52,804 bases of DNA from positions 1 to 52,804 of the forward strand of contig JAJZJN010000001.1 of the NCBI GenBank assembly GCA_021851165.1, read 5' to 3'. The notes beneath the pieces are model-generated. The model was not told the DNA's origin. It did no database searches and saw only the letters and a program-made list of their open reading frames with translations. This DNA comes from Actinomycetes bacterium. GTDB lineage: Bacteria > Actinomycetota > Acidimicrobiia > Acidimicrobiales > JAJZJN01. Below, piece by piece: positions 1,937 to 40,896 of the stretch (position 1 is its first letter; the number at the start of each line of letters is the position of its first letter). Both the position numbers and the translations under genes were made by a program.

Positions 1937-4900
1937 TCACCCGTGTGAGACCGCCATGACGGCTTCCTCCACGGAGGTCCCTCTCTCCAGCGCCTCTGCC
2001 GTAGCCGCTAGAACCCTGCGATAGTCACGCGGCATGACCTTGACCATGTCCCCAGCAGCCGATCCCCAATTATCGATCAGCCGCGTAGCCACGGCCGATC
2101 CGGTCTCGTCGCGATGCCGCTCCAGAATGGTCTCGAGCCAGCGCAGATCCTCTTCGTCCAGCGGTTCCAGGTCAACCATGCCGAAGTTGACCTGGTCGGC
2201 AAAACGCCGGTGTGGATCATGAACATACGCGATCCCGCCGGACATGCCCGCTCCGAAGTTGCGCCCCGTAGGGCCGAGCACGACGACCCTTCCGCCGGTC
2301 ATGTACTCGCATCCATGGTCGCCCACCCCCTCCACCACGGCCACGGCGCCCGAATTGCGAACGCAGAAGCGCTCGCCCACCTGCCCACGGATCAGGACCT
2401 CGCCCGAGGTGGCCCCGTAGAGGACCACATTGCCTGCTATAACCTGCTCCTCGGCTGCAAAACGAGCTTCCTCGGGCGGACGGAGAACCACCCGGCCACC
2501 CGACAGTCCCTTTGCCAGATAATCGTTCGCGTCGCCCCACAGCCGGAGCGTCACCCCTCTTGGCACAAAAGCTCCGAAGCTCTGCCCAGCAGAGCCGGTA
2601 AATGTAAGGTCGATAGTCCCCTCGGGCAATCCCGCGCCGCCATGGCGCCGGGTGATCTCATAGCCAAGCAGGGTGCCCACGGTCCTGTCGACATTGGTTA
2701 TATCCAGCGCGAGCGCGACCTTCTCCCCGCGTTCGATCGCAGGAAGGCACGCGTCGATGAACTGCCGGTCCAGAGCCTTGTCGAGACCGTGGTCCTGAGA
2801 GCGTGTGCAGTGGCGTGCCGGCACTGGTGCCTCGGAGCCGCCGAGGAGCCCCGCGCCAGCGGCAGCCGTACCGTCGATCCCCGCACCGTTCGAAGACGGG
2901 GCAGGCTTCTCCAGCACGGCCGACAGGTCCAATCCCCTCGCCTTGAAGTGGTCCACAGCGCTGATCGAGTCGAGAAGATCCACCCGCCCCACTGCCTCCT
3001 CGATCGAGCGCAGGCCCAGGCTCGCCAGATGCTCTCGCACCTCCTCGGCTATGAACTCGAAGAAGTTCTGGACGAACTCTGGCTGTCCGGTGAACCGCTT
3101 GCGAAGCTCGGGATTCTGGGTCGCGATCCCCACCGGGCAGGTATCAAGGTGACAGACCCTCATCATCACGCAACCCGACACCACGAGCGGCGCGCTTGCG
3201 AAACCGAACTCCTCTGCTCCGAGCAAGGCTGCAACCACAACGTCGCGCCCAGTCTTCATCTGGCCGTCAACCTGGACGACGATCCGGTCGCGGAGCCCGT
3301 TTCTGACCAGGGTCTGCTGCGTCTCGGCCAGGCCGAGCTCCCATGGTATCCCTGCATGCTTGAGCGAGGTCAGTGGGCTTGCTCCGGTTCCCCCATCATG
3401 GCCCGATATGAGCACCACATCGGATTTCGCCTTCGCCACACCTGCCGCCACGGTCCCCACCCCGACCTCTGCAACCAGTTTCACATGGACTCTGGCAAGT
3501 GGGTTCGCCGACTTCAGATCGTGTATGAGCTGGGCTATGTCCTCTATGGAATAGATGTCATGATGCGGAGGGGGTGAGATGAGCCCCACGCCGGGCGTGG
3601 AGAACCGGGTCCGCGCTATCCACGGGTAGACCTTGTGGCCGGGAAGCTGGCCCCCCTCGCCAGGCTTGGCCCCCTGGGCAATCTTGATCTGGAGATCATC
3701 GGCGTTTACGAGGTACTCGCTTGTCACCCCGAAACGGCCGGAGGCCACCTGCTTCACAGCGCTGCGACGGGAATCCCCGTTCGCGTCGACCACGTACCGC
3801 TCTGGATCCTCGCCTCCCTCGCCCGTATTGGACTTGCCTCCTAGACGGTTCATGGCCACGGCCAGGGTCTCGTGTGCCTCTGCCGAGATGGACCCGTATG
3901 ACATCGCCCCTGTCGCGAAGCGCTTAACGATGGACGAGACCGGCTCGACCTCGTCCAATGCAACAGGCTCGAGTGCAAGGGGGTCGCCCGAGGCGGCGGT
4001 TCTCAAGCGCAGCAGGCCGCGGAGAGTGGCGAGCTTCTCGGACTGGTCGTCAACCAGGCGGGTGTACTCCTTGAATACGTCATAGCGCTTGGCACGTGCC
4101 GCATGCTGGAGTTTGAACACGGTGCGAGGGTTGAACAGATGATGCTCACCCTCGCGGCGCCATTGGTACTCGCCCCCGGTCTCCAACTCCCGGTGAGCAC
4201 GCTCGGTCGGGCGTCTCAGATGCGCTGCGGAATGGCGCTCGCACACTTCAGCGGCAAGAGCATCGAGGCCAGCACCGCCTATCCTGCTCGTCGTGCCGGT
4301 GAAATACTCGTCGACGACGTCGCGAGCCAGACCAACGGCCTCGAAAACCTGGGCTCCAGTATAGGAGGCAACCGTCGAGATCCCCATTTTCGACATGACC
4401 TTGACCACACCTTTGCATGCTGCCTTGATATAGCTGGCTCGGGCTTGGCGAGGGGTAACGCCGTCGAGCATGCCACTGGCTATCATGTCATCGATCGTCT
4501 CGAAGGCGAGGTAGGGATTTACCGCCGACGCCCCATAGCCGACGAGCAGCGCCATATGGTGGACCTCGCGGGCGTCCCCGCTCTCGACTACGAGCCCCAC
4601 CCGGCTGCGTGTCTTCTCGCGCACCAGGTGGTGATGCACCGCAGATGTGGCGAGCAACGACGGGATGGGCGCGAGTTCCGCGTCGGAGTTGCGATCCGAC
4701 AGGATGATCACGTTCGCACCTGCCGCTACAGCCTCGCTCACGCGCCGGCGGACCGACTCGATCGCCTCGCGCAGCGCATCCCCGCCACCGCCGACCGGGA
4801 ACAGCCCGTCGATGGCAAACGCCTTGAACCCCGGTGTCTCGCCGTGCTCGTTCACGTAGAGCAGCTTGGCAAGGTCGTCGTTGTCGATCACCGGATATGG

Positions 4901-6646
4901 CAGGACGATCTGGCGCGCAGACCCGGGAGTCGGGTCGAGCAGGTTCCCCTCTGGACCCACCTTGGACAGGCTGGCAGTTACCAGCTCTTCGCGTATCGCG
5001 TCGAGGGGGGGGTTGGTAACCTGGGCAAAGAGCTGGGTGAAGTAGTCGTACAGCAACCGAGGCTTGTCCGACAGCACAGCCAGCGCGGCATCGTTTCCCA
5101 TTGACCCGATCGGCTCCATGGCCGCCTTTGCCATCGGGGTGAGGATGATACGGAGCTCCTCGTTGGTGTAGCCGAAGAGACGCTGGTGCCTCACCACCGA
5201 AGCGTGCTGCGGAGTCAGCATCGCACGTGGAGGCAGGTCATCGAGACCGACCTGCTGCTCGTCAAGCCACTCACCATAGGGATGCTCGCCCGCCAGGGCC
5301 GACTTGATCTCGGCATCGTCCACGATGCATCCGCGCGCGGTGTCCACCAGGAACATCCTCCCGGGCTGCAGGCGACCCTTGCGGACCACCTTGGCCGGAT
5401 CGCACTGGAGAACCCCCACCTCAGACGACAGCACCATGAGGCCGTCGCTCGTGACCCAGTAGCGCACCGGGCGCAGGCCGTTACGGTCGAGCACCGCTCC
5501 TGCCAGGGTGCCGTCGGTGAACACCACCGCTGCCGGGCCATCCCAAGGCTCCATGAGCGATGCGTGATACCTGTAGAACGCCCGGCGGGCGGGATCCATC
5601 TGGGTATGGTTCTCCCATGCCTCGGGGATCATCATCAGCACAGCGTGAGGCAAAGACCGACCACCCAGATGCAGCAGCTCGAGGACCTCGTCGAACGAGG
5701 CGGAATCGCTTCCCTGCGGATCGCAGATAGGGAACAGGCGGTTCATGTCTCCCGGGATGAGGTCGCTTGCAAGCAGGGACTCGCGTGTGCGCATCCAGTT
5801 CCGGTTGCCCTTCAACGTATTGATCTCACCGTTGTGGGCCATGTAGCGATACGGATGCGCAAGCGGCCAGGAAGGGAATGTGTTGGTGGAGAAGCGCGAG
5901 TGGACCAGAGCGAGGCTGCTCACCATCCGCTCGTCGGCAAGATCTGCGTAGAAACCAGCCAACTGGTGAGCTGTCAGCATCCCCTTGTACACGATCGTCC
6001 GGGCCGACAGCGAGACCGGGTAGACGCCGTCCACCTCGTGCTCGATGCGCTTGCGTAGGCAGAAGGCGCGGCGCTCGAGGGCCATGATCTCCTGCTCGGA
6101 GGGATCCGTCGTACCTGTCCAGGCCGACTCCACCACGAACACCTGGGAGAACCCGGGCATCGAAGCGCGCGCCGAATCGCCAAGCAGCGAGTCGTCCACG
6201 TCGAGCTCGCGCCAGCCGAGGATCGCAAGGGCCTCCTCCGCTGCAATCTGCTCTATAGCCACACGCGCCTTGGCTGCGTCGTCGGCCCCCTGAGGCATGA
6301 ACATAATACCCGTCGCATAGCGGCCCAGCCCGGGCAGGTCGAAGCCGACCGTCTCGGCAAGCAGCCGATGGGGCACCTGGGTGAGCAGCCCGGCACCATC
6401 GCCGGTAGCGTCCTCCGCACCAGATGCTCCCCGATGAGCGAGATGCTCCAGAGCCGTCAGTGCTTGTCCTACCAGGAGATGGCTTCGCCTGCCCTCCAGA
6501 TCCGCTACGAGCGCTATGCCGCACGCATCGTGCTCGAAGGCCGGGTCGTACAGCCCTTGCCCGCTCGGTGCTCCAGGCGCGCTCTTGGCTGTCTGGGTGG
6601 GTATCGTCCGGTCGTAGGGGTTATCGGCGTGGGAAAGTGTCGTCAC
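1937..6646 (-). CDS. gltB: Glutamate synthase large subunit
   Basis: Ntn-amidotransferase Cys ([14 protein letters not shown]), FMN/synthase domain and C-terminal GXGXG domain are present. The ORF-track start at 6925 overlaps thiO and encodes Arg/Pro-rich junk. The GTG at 6644-6646 is preceded by GGAG with an 8-nt spacer and is preferred. The ATG at 6737-6739 is an alternative. Confidence 0.93.
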
Positions 6647-25003: not shown

Positions 25004-25051
25004 CGATCGCCGTAGCCCGATCGCCGTAGCCCGATCGCCGTAGCCCGATCG
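25004..25051. repeat. Non-coding 14-bp tandem repeat CGATCGCCGTAGCC x3.4
   Basis: Units at 25004-25017, 25018-25031 and 25032-25045, plus a partial cgatcg. It lies in the 254-bp spacer between the GNAT stop and the EAL start. Confidence 0.9.
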
Positions 25052-25106: not shown

Positions 25107-25757
25107 TCATTGCGAGGGCGGCCGCGCCTCGCGCCACATGAGCCAGAGCGTGGGTCCTTCACGGGGAAGATGCAGCTCGCTCATCACCTCGAATCCGTGC
25201 CTGCGGTAAAACGGCACGTTGCGCTCCTTCGATGATTCCAGGTAGGCGGGCATTCCCTCCTCGTCACAGCGCGACAGCACCCTGCGCAGGAGTGCAGAGC
25301 CCACTCCCTGACCCTGCCGTTGTGGCTCCGTGCCCAGAGTGGCGAGGTACCAGTGCTCCTCCGACGGACGGAGGGCTTCCATCCTCGCGATCATGCTCAC
25401 GGCCCTCAACATGCGCCGTCCGGCTAGGTAAGGCAGGACCGGCAACATCTGCACCAGATCCCTCGGTGTTGGGCGCGCTTTAGACGGAGGTGCCCACAAC
25501 GCCGCACCGGCAAGGTCCTCGGTTGTCCACACTTCGCCCGCCGGAAGGTACCCGTGGGCAAGCTGGATACCGAAGAACCTCCTCAATGCCCGCTCCCGCG
25601 TACGGGAGTGGGTGAACAGGTACACAGCCACCGGGTCATCCTCGAACGCTCGCGCCAGCACCGAGGCCAGCGGACGAGCATCTTCAAGACCCGCTCGCCG
25701 AACCTGAATCGGGGCAGGAGGCCGCCGGCTCGCCGGCGGCATCGCTCGTTGCATCAC
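25107..25757 (-). CDS. GNAT-family N-acetyltransferase
   Basis: WYLATLGTEPQRQGQGVGSALLRRVL (acetyl-CoA Q/RxxGxG/A motif) and PAYLESSKERNVPFYRRHGFEV. Its start overlaps the stop of the upstream fused TA gene (GTGA at 25754-25757). Confidence 0.85.
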   Translation of the reverse strand: MMQRAMPPASRRPPAPIQVRRAGLEDARPLASVLARAFEDDPVAVYLFTHSRTRERALRRFFGIQLAHGYLPAGEVWTTEDLAGAALWAPPSKARPTPRDLVQMLPVLPYLAGRRMLRAVSMIARMEALRPSEEHWYLATLGTEPQRQGQGVGSALLRRVLSRCDEEGMPAYLESSKERNVPFYRRHGFEVMSELHLPREGPTLWLMWREARPPSQ

Positions 25758-26350
25758 CGCTGGAGATGGAGGAAGTCGCCGCGCATGATCTCGACCATGC
25801 GGACCGCCCGCTGCAGGGCATCCAACCTATAGACGAGCCTCTTGCCACCGAAGTGCGCCACGTAGAGCCGCTCGAGATCGCCGGCCAGCTCGACGCCGGC
25901 GCCGGCGGGATCATCGAGAAAGCGACCCGTGATGTATCGCGTGATCTCGGCACGCTCTGCCGGAGTGGCACGGCTGGCCAGCGCGTCACGACACCCGCTC
26001 GACACCATGAGCCTCCATCGCTGCGGGTGCGGCAGAGTGTCAGGGAGGACGCCAACTTCATCAGCCAGGTCCCTGCCCCAGACGAAGCCCCCCGTGTGGA
26101 TCGCGAGATCGCCTGCCCTGATGCGCTCCGTGGCTGCCGGATCGCTCAGGATCTCGATTGTCTCGTCCATGCCGTCCAGGCTGCGCTCGGTCAGGAGAAC
26201 CACAGCGATACCGTCGACATCGGCCCCTACCCGCTTCTCACTGTGGACCACTCGGCGCGCCACTTCGACGAAGGGAAGCTGGGTCTCTGCTGGCGCCAGT
26301 ATGCGATCGGTCACTCTGGCGATGGTAGCCGTGAGCGGCTCGACAGCCAA
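25754..26350 (-). CDS. Single-chain Phd/YefM-like antitoxin fused to a RelE/ParE-like toxin domain
   Basis: aa ~25-95 (VEVARRV...IAVVLLTERSLDGMDETIEILSDPAATERIRAGD) resemble the YefM/Phd pattern. aa ~111-195 (RWRLMVSSGCRDALAS...ITRYITGRFLDDP..GVELAGDLERLYVAHFGGKRLVYRLDALQRAVRMVEIMR) resemble the RelE/ParE pattern. There is no stop between the two parts. The TTG start is uncertain. Confidence 0.65.
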   Translation of the reverse strand: MAVEPLTATIARVTDRILAPAETQLPFVEVARRVVHSEKRVGADVDGIAVVLLTERSLDGMDETIEILSDPAATERIRAGDLAIHTGGFVWGRDLADEVGVLPDTLPHPQRWRLMVSSGCRDALASRATPAERAEITRYITGRFLDDPAGAGVELAGDLERLYVAHFGGKRLVYRLDALQRAVRMVEIMRGDFLHLQR

Positions 26351-26401: not shown

Positions 26402-27082
26402 TCAGTTGAGCGTAGGGTCCGGTGGGTAGTTGGCCAGCATCGACAGTTCGCCGCCCTGCCTGCGGAGCACGTCGGACCACAATGACCCCGGATCCTCACA
26501 GAAGATGTCCGCGGGGATTGCCCCGAGCACGATCCATCCCCCCGCTTCGAGCTCCCCCTCGAGCTGGCCCGGGCCCCAGCCGGCATATCCTGCAAAGAGC
26601 CTTGCCCCGTCAATGGCGACGTCCTGGCTGCCGGGGGGCAGTGACAGGTCGACCGTATCGGCACCAAGCGCAGCCCGCCATCCACCGGCAGCTGGCCCTT
26701 CCCCTCCTCGAGCCGCTCCTCGGGCTGGGCCGGCAGCCAGGCGCCCGATGCCTATCATCGCGTTCGGCGCGACGGGTCCGCCCGAGAACACCAGCGCCGG
26801 CGGCGTCCTTCTTGCCTCGGATGCCCAGCTGCCTATGATCTCCGCAACTTCCACCTCCGTCGGGCGGTTCAAGATGACACCCAGAGCACCCTCCGGGCCG
26901 TGGTCCAAGACGAGAAGGACAGTCCTGTCGAAGTTGGGATCGACGAGAGCCGGCGCTGCAACCAACAGGTCACCAGCAAGCGATCTGCCATCCCCGTCGG
27001 GCTCCTCTCCCCATGCCGGAGCTATGTCACCTGTCGATCCTGCCATCCACCGATCATGGCGCGAACCCGGGCTATCGGTCAC
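26402..27082 (-). CDS. YqgE/AlgH-family (UPF0301, DUF179) protein
   Basis: GDLLVAAPALVDPNFDRTVLLVLDHGPEGALGVILNRP ... FAGYAGWGPGQLEGELEAGGW is the family signature. The start overlaps the upstream gene stop by 4 nt. Confidence 0.85.
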   Translation of the reverse strand: MTDSPGSRHDRWMAGSTGDIAPAWGEEPDGDGRSLAGDLLVAAPALVDPNFDRTVLLVLDHGPEGALGVILNRPTEVEVAEIIGSWASEARRTPPALVFSGGPVAPNAMIGIGRLAAGPARGAARGGEGPAAGGWRAALGADTVDLSLPPGSQDVAIDGARLFAGYAGWGPGQLEGELEAGGWIVLGAIPADIFCEDPGSLWSDVLRRQGGELSMLANYPPDPTLN

Positions 27083-27699
27083 AACGGCTCCCCCGCAGGC
27101 CCCCCGGCCTCATCGCCACCCGCAGGCCCCCCGGCCTCATCGCCACCCGCAGGCCCCCCGGCCGCGGCATCCCCGCGGGGTCCCCCGCCCGTAGGGTCAG
27201 GACTAGAGAACAGCAGTGGAGCATCCCTCAAGTGCCTGGGTGGCTCCGTCCCGGTGGTGCCCCCGACAAACGCAGCCACTGTTCTACGCATAACGCCGCG
27301 AGCCATCCACACCAGGAATGCCGCCATGGGCAGGTTGCCGAACACCGCCGTTACGATCGTTACCACCTCGCCGCGCGTTCCGAAGGACGTGTTGACATCG
27401 AACCACGCATCGCAGACGAGCATGGTCGCCGCCACTATGGCGGAGCCTGCCAGGATCTGACGCTTGGTCCACACCGCCCAGGCGTTGAACGCGAGCACAG
27501 CCATCAGGGCCGCATCGAAGCCCACCCATGCAACGTTCCAGTTGTGACTCCTGAAATGGCCCGGTAGCGTCACCGCGAGGTAACCAGTCCATGGCACCAT
27601 GCCTATGACCACGACGAATACACCCAGGGCCACCCACCTGCTCATCCGGGTCAGATCCTCATCATTGGCGTGGACGCCGGTCTCCTTCGCCGAATCCAT
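27079..27699 (-). CDS. Hypothetical 4-TM membrane protein with a Gly/Pro/Ala repeat tail
   Basis: Four hydrophobic helices, and a C-terminal AGGPAGGDE repeat encoded by the 27-bp repeat. The ATG at 27697-27699 is only 17 bp from the divergent ATPase ATG. Confidence 0.6.
   Translation of the reverse strand: MDSAKETGVHANDEDLTRMSRWVALGVFVVVIGMVPWTGYLAVTLPGHFRSHNWNVAWVGFDAALMAVLAFNAWAVWTKRQILAGSAIVAATMLVCDAWFDVNTSFGTRGEVVTIVTAVFGNLPMAAFLVWMARGVMRRTVAAFVGGTTGTEPPRHLRDAPLLFSSPDPTGGGPRGDAAAGGPAGGDEAGGPAGGDEAGGPAGEPL
27094..27163. repeat. 27-bp tandem repeat x2.6 (in frame, tail of the membrane protein)
   Basis: cgcaggccccccggcctcatcgccacc at 27094-27120 and 27121-27147, with a partial third copy to 27163. 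Confidence 0.9.
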
Positions 27700-39597: not shown

Positions 39598-40355
39598 GTG
39601 ATGCCCCCGCCGACCGGGATCGGAACGGACCGGACGATCACACAACCCCCGAGAGCGAGAACAGCGCTCAGCTACCGGCAGGTGACCTGACAGTTGCCTC
39701 GTGGGGCAACGCCAGCCTGACCCGGTGGCAACCGGCCATCGATGCCGTCGCACAGATGCTGGGCTTGAACCCCGTTACCGGTCCATGCTTCGACGCACCA
39801 ACGGGGTCCAGGAACGGCGAGGGTGACACCATGCTAGGCCTTGCCGCGTCGCTTCCAGGCCCGGTGCTCGTTCTTCCCCCCCGGGGAGCGGGCAACGCTA
39901 GCGCGGTCCAGGGATCTACACAGGCCACGCCCGGCAGCACGCTATCCCGGGTGCTCGTGCCCGTCGACGGCACAGAGCCGGTCATAGAACGCGTCCGGCA
40001 TTTCCTAGGTCACCTGGGCAAGTCCCTTGAGGGAGTCGTGCTCCTGCACGTCTTGTCGGAGTCCACCCGGCCACGGTTGTGGGAGGGGGCCGGGTACAAC
40101 GCCGAGGCATGGCTGGAAGAGCTGAGCCGCCGGCATGGCGTGGGAGTCGGATCCATAGAGGTGCGCACCGGGGAACCTGCTGACGTCATCGAGGAGCGGT
40201 CACATGATGCCGACCTCATTGCCTTGGCATGGCAGGGCGACATCACCTCAGGCAAAGCAGCCTTGGCAAGGGCCCTGATCGAGCGGGTCGACGTGCCGGT
40301 CCTGCTCCTGCCCTTCGCCCCTATCGGCGAGTCCGGCACGCTGCCTGGCAGCTGA
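39594..40355 (+). CDS. Hypothetical protein with a degenerate C-terminal USP-like domain
   Basis: ATGA overlap with the GH65 stop (39594-39597). The C-terminal RVLVPVDGTEP...VVLLHV...DLIALAWQGDITSGKAALARALIERVDVPVLLLP has the USP topology but lacks the Gly-rich ATP motif. The N-terminal ~120 aa are unassigned. Confidence 0.6.
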   Translation: MSDAPADRDRNGPDDHTTPESENSAQLPAGDLTVASWGNASLTRWQPAIDAVAQMLGLNPVTGPCFDAPTGSRNGEGDTMLGLAASLPGPVLVLPPRGAGNASAVQGSTQATPGSTLSRVLVPVDGTEPVIERVRHFLGHLGKSLEGVVLLHVLSESTRPRLWEGAGYNAEAWLEELSRRHGVGVGSIEVRTGEPADVIEERSHDADLIALAWQGDITSGKAALARALIERVDVPVLLLPFAPIGESGTLPGS

Positions 40356-40371
40356 GCCGGCTCAGGCCCGC

Positions 40372-40896
40372 TCAATCCTCCTCGCCGTGGACCACCACTA
40401 CCGGGCAGTGCGCGTGGTGGACGCACTGAGAGCTCACCGAACCGAGCAGAAGACCGACGAACCCGCCCCTGCCGCGGCTTCCGACCACGAGCATCTCGGC
40501 ACCCTTGGAACGCTCGATAAGCACTGGCGCCGCCGGCCCTTCGACCACCGTCTCGGTAATGGTGAGGCCTGAGCCTTCCACCTCCGACAGAGCATCGGCG
40601 AGCTCGGCCTTCACGTCTGTCTCCATCTGGACTGCCGCGTCGCCTATTCCTTCCCCGGCTGGAAGCATCGCGAAGTCGACAGGAACCTGCCAGGCAGCCA
40701 CCGCATCCAACGACGCGTGCCGGTAGCCCGCCTCCTCCACTGCCCAGGCGAGCGCCTGCCTCGATGTAGGCGAGCCATCGACGCCGACCACGATCCTTCC
40801 ACCTCCGCGGAGCGCCGCGCCTGGCTCCTCGCTCCGCCCGCCTGCTGGCTCAGGGGCCGCTGAACCTGCCTCGTTGCCATAGCTGCCATCCACCAT
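40372..40896 (-). CDS. Universal stress protein (UspA family)
   Basis: IVVGVDGSPTSRQALAWA and MLVVGSRGRGGFVGLLLGSVSSQCVHHAHCPVVVV. It is a paralogue of 30184-30690. GAGGGAG lies 8 nt upstream of the ATG at 40894-40896. Confidence 0.9.
   Translation of the reverse strand: MVDGSYGNEAGSAAPEPAGGRSEEPGAALRGGGRIVVGVDGSPTSRQALAWAVEEAGYRHASLDAVAAWQVPVDFAMLPAGEGIGDAAVQMETDVKAELADALSEVEGSGLTITETVVEGPAAPVLIERSKGAEMLVVGSRGRGGFVGLLLGSVSSQCVHHAHCPVVVVHGEED

Follow-up and report, generated by a model that had tools for sequence, protein, structure and literature searches.

If both halves of a chromosomal toxin-antitoxin (TA) module come to lie in one polypeptide, does the module still arrest growth, or has it become part of the regulation of its host? 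This question is raised by a gene of an actinomycete of the order Acidimicrobiales (GenBank assembly GCA_021851165.1, contig JAJZJN010000001.1), of which positions 1 to 52,804 were analyzed as one stretch, referred to below as the window. On the minus strand, an open reading frame (ORF) runs unbroken over 25754..26350 and encodes 198 aa when counted from the TTG at 26350; this numbering is used throughout. Along the chain, a RelB antitoxin half of the Phd/YefM type is joined through a linker of 12 residues to a toxin half of the RelE type, and the gene overlaps a downstream gene for a GNAT acetyltransferase. Members of the YefM/Phd and RelE/ParE families are normally two separate, co-translated polypeptides. 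Naturally fused TA proteins that are autoinhibited in cis are represented by CapRel(SJ46) and EzeT, and CapRel acts as a phage sensor. A first-pass annotation of the window had reported the uninterrupted frame with its antitoxin-like N-half and toxin-like C-half, which is indeed present, and had left the choice between a cis-inhibited toxin of the CapRel kind and a decayed TA locus. Our analysis leads to a third interpretation: with a probability of about 0.45, the protein is a RelBE that has been domesticated, masks itself permanently and regulates the operon in which it lies.

Homology and structure of the fusion protein

When the single sequence was compared with all PDB entries by phmmer, exactly two matches were returned, namely both chains of the RelBE1 complex of Mycobacterium tuberculosis (9G12). 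RelB1 (9g12_C) matches residues 48-94 (E 0.006) and RelE1 (9g12_A) residues 129-191 (E 0.0025), i.e. antitoxin and then toxin along the fusion; this homology of both halves bears out the single-chain YefM/Phd-RelE/ParE fusion of the first-pass annotation. Searches of Pfam, NCBIfam and PADLOC with the single 198-aa sequence gave no significant match (in Pfam none even at E 10), and the C-half alone reached Pfam ParE_toxin at only E 0.16. A word-indexed homologue search with the fusion retrieved the copy of the same species as its sole match. When 1.84 billion cluster representatives were searched exhaustively with HMMER, 25 hits were obtained, about 13 of which match both halves (184-217 aa, 27-40% identity); one further hit, P0024, is an Ig-repeat protein and was discarded as spurious. 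With a profile of the family, the PDB matches become highly significant: E 3e-18 for RelB1, about 2e-16 for Rv2866/Rv2865 and 7e-7 for E. coli YefM, with RelE1 at the top (Table 1). The profile also matches many PF02604 antitoxins, and precomputed hits to PF02604 exist for two of the relatives, P0017 and P0009.

The AlphaFold2 model of the fusion has a pLDDT of 85.4 and a pTM of 0.80, which for a two-domain chain points to a confident inter-domain arrangement. According to Foldseek, the C-half resembles RelE1 (9g12_A) and RelE2 (3g5o_B) at TM 0.89 with an rmsd of 1.0-2.2 Å, and the N-half resembles RelB1 (9g12_C, TM 0.70), 6l8e_A (0.67) and 3cto_A (0.62). By structure comparison and profile, the toxin half hence belongs to the BECR-fold toxins of the RelE/ParE type (PF05016). 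The antitoxin half shows in the model the Phd/YefM organization, that is, an N-terminal dimerisation and DNA-binding fold (pLDDT 50-80) followed by toxin-binding helices. By homology, the N-terminal domain is predicted to serve in dimerisation and DNA binding.

A profile of the C-half matched 364 canonical PF05016 RelE toxins of 84-96 aa, all at 66 bits or less, versus 100-131 bits for the fused members. On these scores, the fusions form a distinct and deep lineage without a close split pair. The first-pass annotation had proposed a search of related genomes for fused versus split forms, and the outcome is one-sided: fused clusters were found, and no split pair close to them. Some apparent standalone proteins had to be set aside. 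P0010, at first taken for a standalone toxin, is a truncated gene call of the full fusion in locus L014; P0007, which starts in mid-antitoxin on a 789-bp contig, and P0015, with 96 aa and the toxin half only, look like fragments too. A RelE-like ORF elsewhere in the window (40279-40569) was dropped, having E 0.32 and no Pfam hit. Three other proteins, P0023 (138 aa), P0017 and P0019, are separate and more canonical RelB-RelE fusions that retain GKxL, SARRG and HRxDAY; hence the fusion of a relBE pair seems to have occurred more than once. P0023 lacks the toxin beta1-alpha1 region and looks like a recently decayed fusion.

Integrity and conservation of the fused gene

The true start of the fusion is probably the GTG at 26314, giving 186 aa, since a TACCAT box lies 7 nt upstream and this start position is common to all orthologues. 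The junction had been expected around 26020-26053, in close agreement with the linker (Table 1). No in-frame ATG, GTG or TTG occurs in the linker of the window protein, so that the toxin half has no start from which it could be translated on its own. Throughout the family, the linker measures about 10 to 45 residues. The locus thus departs from the two-polypeptide organization of a canonical type II TA operon with its labile antitoxin and stable toxin, and the fused state is conserved family-wide. The GC content at the three codon positions of the ORF (0.73/0.47/0.77) is coding-like in both halves.

An independent ENA metagenome assembly of the same species (L001) contains the intact fusion as well. 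It is 99.67% identical to the window at the nucleotide level over 19.5 kb, with two synonymous and two non-synonymous differences in the fusion ORF. In every lineage the ORF is intact, and no frameshifts occur across 32-54% identity. Synonymous sites are saturated for most of the GNAT-linked pairs, and the sole usable pair, L005 versus L014 (54% identity), has a dN/dS of 0.26, with 0.35 in the N-half and 0.20 in the C-half. Judged by these ratios, both halves of the fusion are under purifying selection.

In view of the conserved fused state and the selection on both halves, we reject the proposal that the locus is a decayed TA module which lost its stop codon. The related explanation, that an ordinary bicistronic relBE was merged in the window through faulty sequencing or assembly or by recent loss of a stop codon, could appeal to isolated fusions that resemble recent decay elsewhere, such as P0023. 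It can hardly be credited in view of the occurrence of the fusion in independent ENA, JGI, NCBI and Logan assemblies, the lack of frameshifts, the coding-like codon composition and the purifying selection just described.

The species itself is poorly represented in databases. Among 185,579 species genomes, the closest GNAT shares only 67% identity with that of the window, even though the window contains both of the peptides used for the search; the species, and probably its genus as well, is without a representative in this collection. A close match to the window was found in one ENA metagenome contig only (ERZ27237466).

Erosion of the active site

For RelE1, alanine substitutions have shown toxicity to depend on R60, R65, R85 and Y89 as well as on R17, but not on K47, R50, S58 and R61 (PMC12620021). 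At the first four of these positions, which are 91-100% conserved in canonical RelE, 33 canonical relatives were compared with 10 sequences from the GNAT-linked clade. R60 is Arg in 30/33 canonical sequences, versus H, H, R, R, T, V, A, S, W and L in the clade (H166 in the window). R65 is Arg in 33/33 and 10/10 (R171). R85 is Arg in 33/33 canonical sequences and in 7/10 clade members, where the register is shifted by one (R190); Y89 is Tyr in 33/33, but His in five, Tyr in two and Phe in three members of the clade (H195). Of the four toxicity residues, R171 alone is invariant in the clade, and the full catalytic set of the RelE1 type is not kept. The catalytic residue check suggested in the first-pass annotation therefore has a divided outcome: the equivalent of R65 is kept, and those of R60, R85 and Y89 are not conserved. 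Altogether, W112, E154, R171, R175 and R184 are invariant in the 10 clade sequences, with W112, E154 and R184 being the clade's own invariant residues. In one relative, P0006, the whole C-terminal tail with the equivalents of R85 and Y89 is lost, and the gene persists.

The retention of R171 does not by itself require a nuclease. In the RelBE1 crystal, R65 of RelE1 forms a salt bridge with E50 of RelB1 (PMC12620021). The counterpart of E50 in the window protein, E63, is conserved wherever R171 is present; the invariance of R171 can thus be explained by the antitoxin-toxin interface alone, as judged from this co-conservation.

A sister subfamily from a peat metagenome, made up of single-chain RelBE fusions of about 200 aa, occupies a different place, with rph-rdgB(Ham1) on one side and a DUF885 gene in convergent orientation on the other. 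It was found by a degenerate DNA pattern scan in 7/9 loci (L098-L100, L102-L104 and L106; examples are L102 8028-8636 and L103 2400-3041). These loci have Leu at the equivalent of R65 and Tyr in place of the E50 partner. Over the sister subfamily, the pair is mostly Leu with Tyr or Arg on the antitoxin side; P0012 and P0016 retain the Glu, with Thr or Ser at the R65 position. In the closer pairs of this subfamily, dN/dS is 0.09-0.21 in both halves.

Locus, distribution and inheritance

The fusion of the window and its orthologues (P0002, P0003, P0004, P0005 and the L014 protein), which share 32-54% identity with one another, reside in a common locus of the order algH(DUF179)-fusion-GNAT-LysR(-)-HAD/acyltransferase-MurT/GatD. 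Some lineages have additional genes between algH and the fusion. A search anchored on the GNAT identified 216 species-level genomes that possess it, nearly all of them Acidimicrobiales or Acidimicrobiaceae metagenome-assembled genomes, and 80 of these loci were fetched for an examination of their neighbourhoods. The fusion is present in only two of the 80 (L013 and L014); in the other 78, no ORF resembling RelB or RelE was detected, although matches up to E 10 were admitted. Wherever algH is found in the fusion-less loci, it stands beside the GNAT, with a short gap or tandem repeats in between. According to this comparison, the fusion entered the locus between algH and a GNAT that is older and conserved independently of it.

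In a crude neighbour-joining tree of the GNAT, LysR and HAD/acyltransferase proteins, the loci with the fusion make up a basal grade within one clade, a placement that fits one old gain and one loss. P0006 (L010/L011) represents lineages in which the fusion is retained beside LysR-MurT and the GNAT has been lost. Other relatives stand in further contexts: P0011 has small hypothetical genes and a fragment of TnpB as neighbours, and P0009 and P0017 are standalone fusions. No relatives were matched in a tblastn comparison with plasmids and phages. Neither the fusion nor the GNAT nor AlgH had a match in PADLOC, and their neighbours are housekeeping genes with conserved synteny. Judging from this synteny, the fusion is vertically inherited in uncultured soil Acidimicrobiales. 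No close relative turned up when metagenomes were scanned with the window protein.

In two fusion-less loci (L017, about 4880-4990, and L024, about 4985-5040), the spacer between algH and the GNAT holds tandem copies of the 3' end of algH, with repeat units in such spacers like CAGTCGATTGAACGGCA and GAGCGCCNCCCGAT. Copies of this kind at the site where the fusion is inserted elsewhere indicate that the site is recombinationally active.

The GNAT as an older resident of the locus

The downstream GNAT resembles puromycin N-acetyltransferase (PAC; PDB 7K09), with which it aligns over its full length (residues 19-210, E 6.7e-28). The similarity is one of sequence; unlike PAC, it is a conserved chromosomal gene of Acidimicrobiales outside any antibiotic gene cluster. 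Puromycin is a mimic of aminoacyl-tRNA. Across lineages the GNAT is 53-66% identical, above the 32-54% of the fusion. Since it occurs without the fusion in 78/80 related species, the GNAT is, on this distribution, an ancestral gene of the locus that takes part in the coupling as a passenger and is no TA component.

This bears on the possibility of a three-part TA system, in which the GNAT would be a second toxin of the TacT/AtaT type or a modifier dependent on the fusion. The conserved translational coupling and the fact that the closest characterized relative of the GNAT acetylates puromycin would be in its favour. As in TacT, AtaT and KacT, the GNAT gene overlaps the stop of an upstream gene that contains an antitoxin. 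Those toxins, however, depend on adjacent antitoxins of the RHH/DUF1778 type, whereas the upstream protein here is of another type and no DUF1778 is present; the best matches of the GNAT are PAC and housekeeping-type GNATs, it stands alone beside algH in nearly all relatives, and in several fusion-less loci it has a -10-like box of its own (see below). On the grounds of its distribution and its PAC-like match, we rejected the GNAT as a TacT/AtaT-type toxin, and consider a three-part system highly improbable.

Probable operon start and translational coupling

A TANNNT box is found 6-8 nt ahead of the family-aligned start codon in 7/7 loci; the background frequency of this pattern is 0.0022 per position, with 2-8 candidate starts per locus. 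As this arrangement corresponds to the actinobacterial -10/leaderless pattern, the fusion is probably translated from a leaderless mRNA. Boxes of the same kind precede the GNAT where the fusion is missing: in several of 23 fusion-less loci inspected (e.g. L041, L043, L049 at about 4955-4975, L025 and L028), a TACNAT box lies 6-7 nt before the GTG of the GNAT. The GNAT box of L049, GGTACCATCGCCGAGTG, is nearly identical to the box and spacer of the window fusion, GGCTACCATCGCCAGAGTG. This correspondence suggests that the fusion took over the promoter-proximal first position of a pre-existing leaderless GNAT gene. A generic promoter and terminator scan showed nothing relevant, and no terminator between fusion and GNAT.

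The GTGA overlap at 25754-25757 between the fusion stop and the GNAT start was recorded correctly in the first-pass annotation, and the coupling which it implied gains weight from comparison: a 4-nt stop/start overlap is conserved in 6/6 diverged lineages (window, L002, L005, L006, L009 and L014), as GTGA in three, ATGA in two and TTGA in one. It suggests termination-reinitiation coupling to the GNAT. In the window, the sequence continues as TGATG, and the ATG one codon past the GTG is an alternative GNAT start.

Given this coupling, one may ask if the fusion is anything other than a functionless passenger, kept open merely as the carrier of promoter and start for a GNAT that depends on its translation. 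Such an explanation would account for the conserved overlap and leaderless-type start, and for a GNAT that is far better conserved than the fusion. The amino-acid constraint (dN/dS 0.26) and the invariant residues in both halves speak against it, as do the P0006 lineages, which keep the fusion without the GNAT, and the other subfamilies, which are conserved in unrelated contexts. We therefore regard a mere passenger as distinctly improbable.

Table 1. Position and support of the elements that make up the fusion-GNAT locus (coordinates of the window; residues in 198-aa numbering; identities are mean pairwise values).
Feature	Positions	Strand	Support and remarks
-10-like box TACCAT	26322..26327	-	7 nt before GTG 26314; putative leaderless-type promoter of the fusion-GNAT operon
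RelB(Phd/YefM)-RelE single-chain CDS, including stop	25754..26314	-	186 aa from the probable start GTG 26314; ORF, start choice, homology, AlphaFold2
Phd/YefM-type N-terminal domain, residues 13-52	26195..26314	-	profile hits to RelB1 1-83, Rv2865, YefM and PF02604; identity 0.27
Antitoxin helices alpha2-alpha4 (toxin-wrapping part of RelB), residues 53-99	26054..26194	-	motif DETIEILSDP; phmmer, profile, AlphaFold2; identity 0.40 (alpha2) and 0.39 (alpha3-4)
Linker GVLPDTLPHPQR, G100-R111	26018..26053	-	pLDDT 68 for residues 101-110; identity 0.30
RelE-like (BECR/RNase T1-like) domain, residues 112-198	25757..26017	-	Foldseek TM 0.89; profile E 1e-20 (RelE1); identity 0.53 (toxin core) and 0.33 (C-terminal tail)
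Stop/start overlap GTGA	25754..25757	-	fusion TGA 25754-25756 over GNAT GTG 25755-25757
Puromycin-N-acetyltransferase-like GNAT, 216 aa, second cistron	25107..25757	-	Pfam Acetyltransf_1/7; 7k09_A E 6.7e-28
algH (DUF179), upstream neighbour	26402..27082	-	adjoins the GNAT in fusion-less relatives, marking the fusion insertion site

Some features of the flanks are recorded here for completeness. Between the GNAT stop and an EAL-domain gene, a perfect 14-nt tandem repeat, CGATCGCCGTAGCC, is present in 3.4 copies (25004-25051); in L001, the gene caller placed a 143-aa ORF without a Pfam hit across this spacer. On the other side, a perfect 27-nt tandem repeat of 2.7 copies (27092-27163) encodes GGPAGGDEA units. 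It lies at the 3' end of a 206-aa membrane-protein ORF (27079-27699, minus strand), which has no Pfam hit and lies just before algH, overlapping its start. No RNA gene was detected in the window by Rfam and tRNA scans.

A model of self-masking and autoregulation

In the mechanism that we propose, the antitoxin helices alpha2-alpha4 would keep the RelE-like domain permanently masked by docking on it, either within one chain or across the dimer. Because the RelE active site is eroded, growth arrest would most likely have been lost, and the protein would now be a regulator. A dimer of the Phd/YefM N-domain would bind the operon promoter, and the tethered RelE domain would be a built-in co-repressor, in the manner of the free toxin in RelBE and YefM-YoeB, for which a role of toxins as transcriptional co-repressors is established (PMC2812701, PMC1802561). 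Translation of the fusion would drive GNAT synthesis via termination-reinitiation at the overlap, and so set the output of the GNAT.

Several points weigh against this model. Binding of the promoter by the N-domain is a prediction from homology, and docking in cis is read from the pTM of the model. Conservation is lowest in the N-domain (27%), where pLDDT is lowest too (50-80), and highest in the toxin core (53%). An operator search in the seven loci revealed no consistent upstream palindrome, and in the window none with arms of at least 6. Furthermore, the fusion diverges faster than its neighbours (32-54% versus 50-68% identity), which would also fit an arms race. Finally, the pattern [HMLQ]-R-x4-[HYF]-L-x-R recurs in the C-terminal tail; with this pattern kept, and with R171, R190, H166 and H195 in the window protein, a remodelled yet active RNase site is possible.

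With regard to operators, two loci have upstream repeats. In L014, a perfect 6-bp inverted repeat, TATGTG-N9-CACATA, surrounds the -10 box about 20 nt upstream of the fusion start, and in L002 two overlapping 10-bp inverted repeats (-53 to -20) abut the -10 box. Both are candidate operators; nothing comparable was seen in the window or the other loci.

In the main rival interpretation, which is that of the first-pass annotation, the fusion would be a conditional, cis-autoinhibited RNase toxin with a remodelled, catalytically competent site (R171, R190 and H166/H195). The RelE domain would be freed by a trigger that binds to the antitoxin helices, or by proteolysis of the linker or the N-half, and would serve in a stress response or in phage defence. 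R171 is invariant, the tail motif recurs and His or Tyr occupies the Y89 position in 7/10 members; the conserved toxin core and the faster divergence agree with such a role, and the linkers are variable and rich in Pro, Ala and Gly, hence possibly accessible to proteases. Fused TA modules are moreover known in defence (PMC9712102; Gerdes 2025, PMC11980606). Yet the essential R60 is not conserved, three members have Phe at the Y89 position and P0006 is without the whole tail. The sister subfamily has no equivalent of R65, and is nevertheless under strong purifying selection. In addition, new fusion molecules, with their antitoxin occupied in cis, would be unable to buffer a freed toxin. The stable, syntenic position among housekeeping genes and the lack of PADLOC, phage and plasmid hits point in the same direction. 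On balance, a conditional toxin appears less likely than the self-masked regulator, but more likely than the other rivals.

Bolder still is the assumption of a working cis-autoinhibited RelE-type RNase with a site rebuilt around His (H166/H195 with R171/R190), acting as a stress or phage sensor in the core genome of an Acidimicrobiales clade and functionally linked to the GNAT, as reflected in the conserved coupling. The link might then consist, for example, in acetylation of an aminoacyl-nucleoside, of a tRNA-like target or of the sensor itself, and the His-rebuilt RNase and the GNAT would constitute a new two-gene module of translation control. We find this rather improbable.

Relation to known systems

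RelBE1 (Rv1247c/Rv1246c, 9G12) and RelBE2 (Rv2865/Rv2866, 3G5O) share with the fusion a Phd/YefM-type RelB with wrapping helices alpha2-alpha4 and the RNase T1-like RelE fold; the interface pair E50-R65 of RelBE1 is kept as E63-R171. Both are encoded by two genes and consist of two polypeptides, whereas the fusion is, according to sequence and model, one chain, and R60, R85 and Y89 of RelE1 are not conserved in its clade.

CapRel(SJ46) and EzeT likewise unite a toxin and its neutralizing domain in one polypeptide. Their toxins, however, belong to unrelated families (a toxSAS pyrophosphokinase and a zeta kinase, respectively). In CapRel, the order of domains is the opposite, a toxSAS toxin being followed by a C-terminal antitoxin/sensor, as against an N-terminal antitoxin and a RelE-like toxin here; CapRel is also associated with mobile elements or defence loci, and its activation by a phage protein is demonstrated; the context of the fusion in the window argues against a comparable role. 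The CapRel-like toxin and phage sensor of the first-pass annotation is hence not upheld as stated: one of four toxicity residues is invariant, the locus is a housekeeping one with no defence island and no PADLOC, plasmid or phage hits, and the sister subfamily is strongly conserved without the catalytic Arg. Neither a PADLOC-DB model nor a defence island places the fusion in a known anti-phage system.

The closest precedents in architecture are the mono-gene modules of Gerdes 2025 (PMC11980606). This catalogue comprises 195 fused BECR-fold TA genes. Among them are Phd/YefM-YoeB fusions with a length of about 150-180 aa, for which dimerisation via YefM and autoregulation are predicted; an example is Mycobacterium shinjukuense BBX74620.1. 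Such modules consist of an N-terminal Phd/YefM, an unstructured linker and a C-terminal BECR toxin in one polypeptide of about 180-200 aa, and the fusion of the window, which combines antitoxin and BECR toxin domains in one chain, is a module of this kind. It differs from the M. shinjukuense type in that the toxin half is RelE1/2-like (PF05016 type) and not YoeB. It also differs from these modules in its orthologous fixation in a syntenic locus, its coupling to the GNAT and its eroded catalytic set. The passages of Table S2 in PMC11980606 that were matched by keyword include no member of its family; their one Acidimicrobiaceae entry is a 239-aa Acidithrix protein. As fused RelE/ParE modules are already on record, the window protein is a well-supported example of modest novelty.

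Significance of the fusion family

The present family adds three things to these modules: its orthologues are fixed at one syntenic site among housekeeping genes, its operon is of the leaderless type and couples the fusion to an older GNAT through a conserved 4-nt overlap, and the erosion of its catalytic set is documented. Its practical value is limited, since the hosts are not in culture and a catalogue of fused RelE/ParE modules appeared in 2025. For the evolution of TA systems, the case is of wider concern. Chromosomal TA genes are usually mobile, patchy in their distribution and of disputed function; here, a RelBE has settled in a housekeeping locus. It became one chain, the first in its operon, and under vertical inheritance has diverged to identities of about 35%; the nuclease site eroded over this time, and the fold and the antitoxin-toxin interface were kept. 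The fusion-less sister species provide a built-in comparison. If the regulatory role proposed here is true, the family would be a clean natural case of a selfish module domesticated into a regulator of its host.

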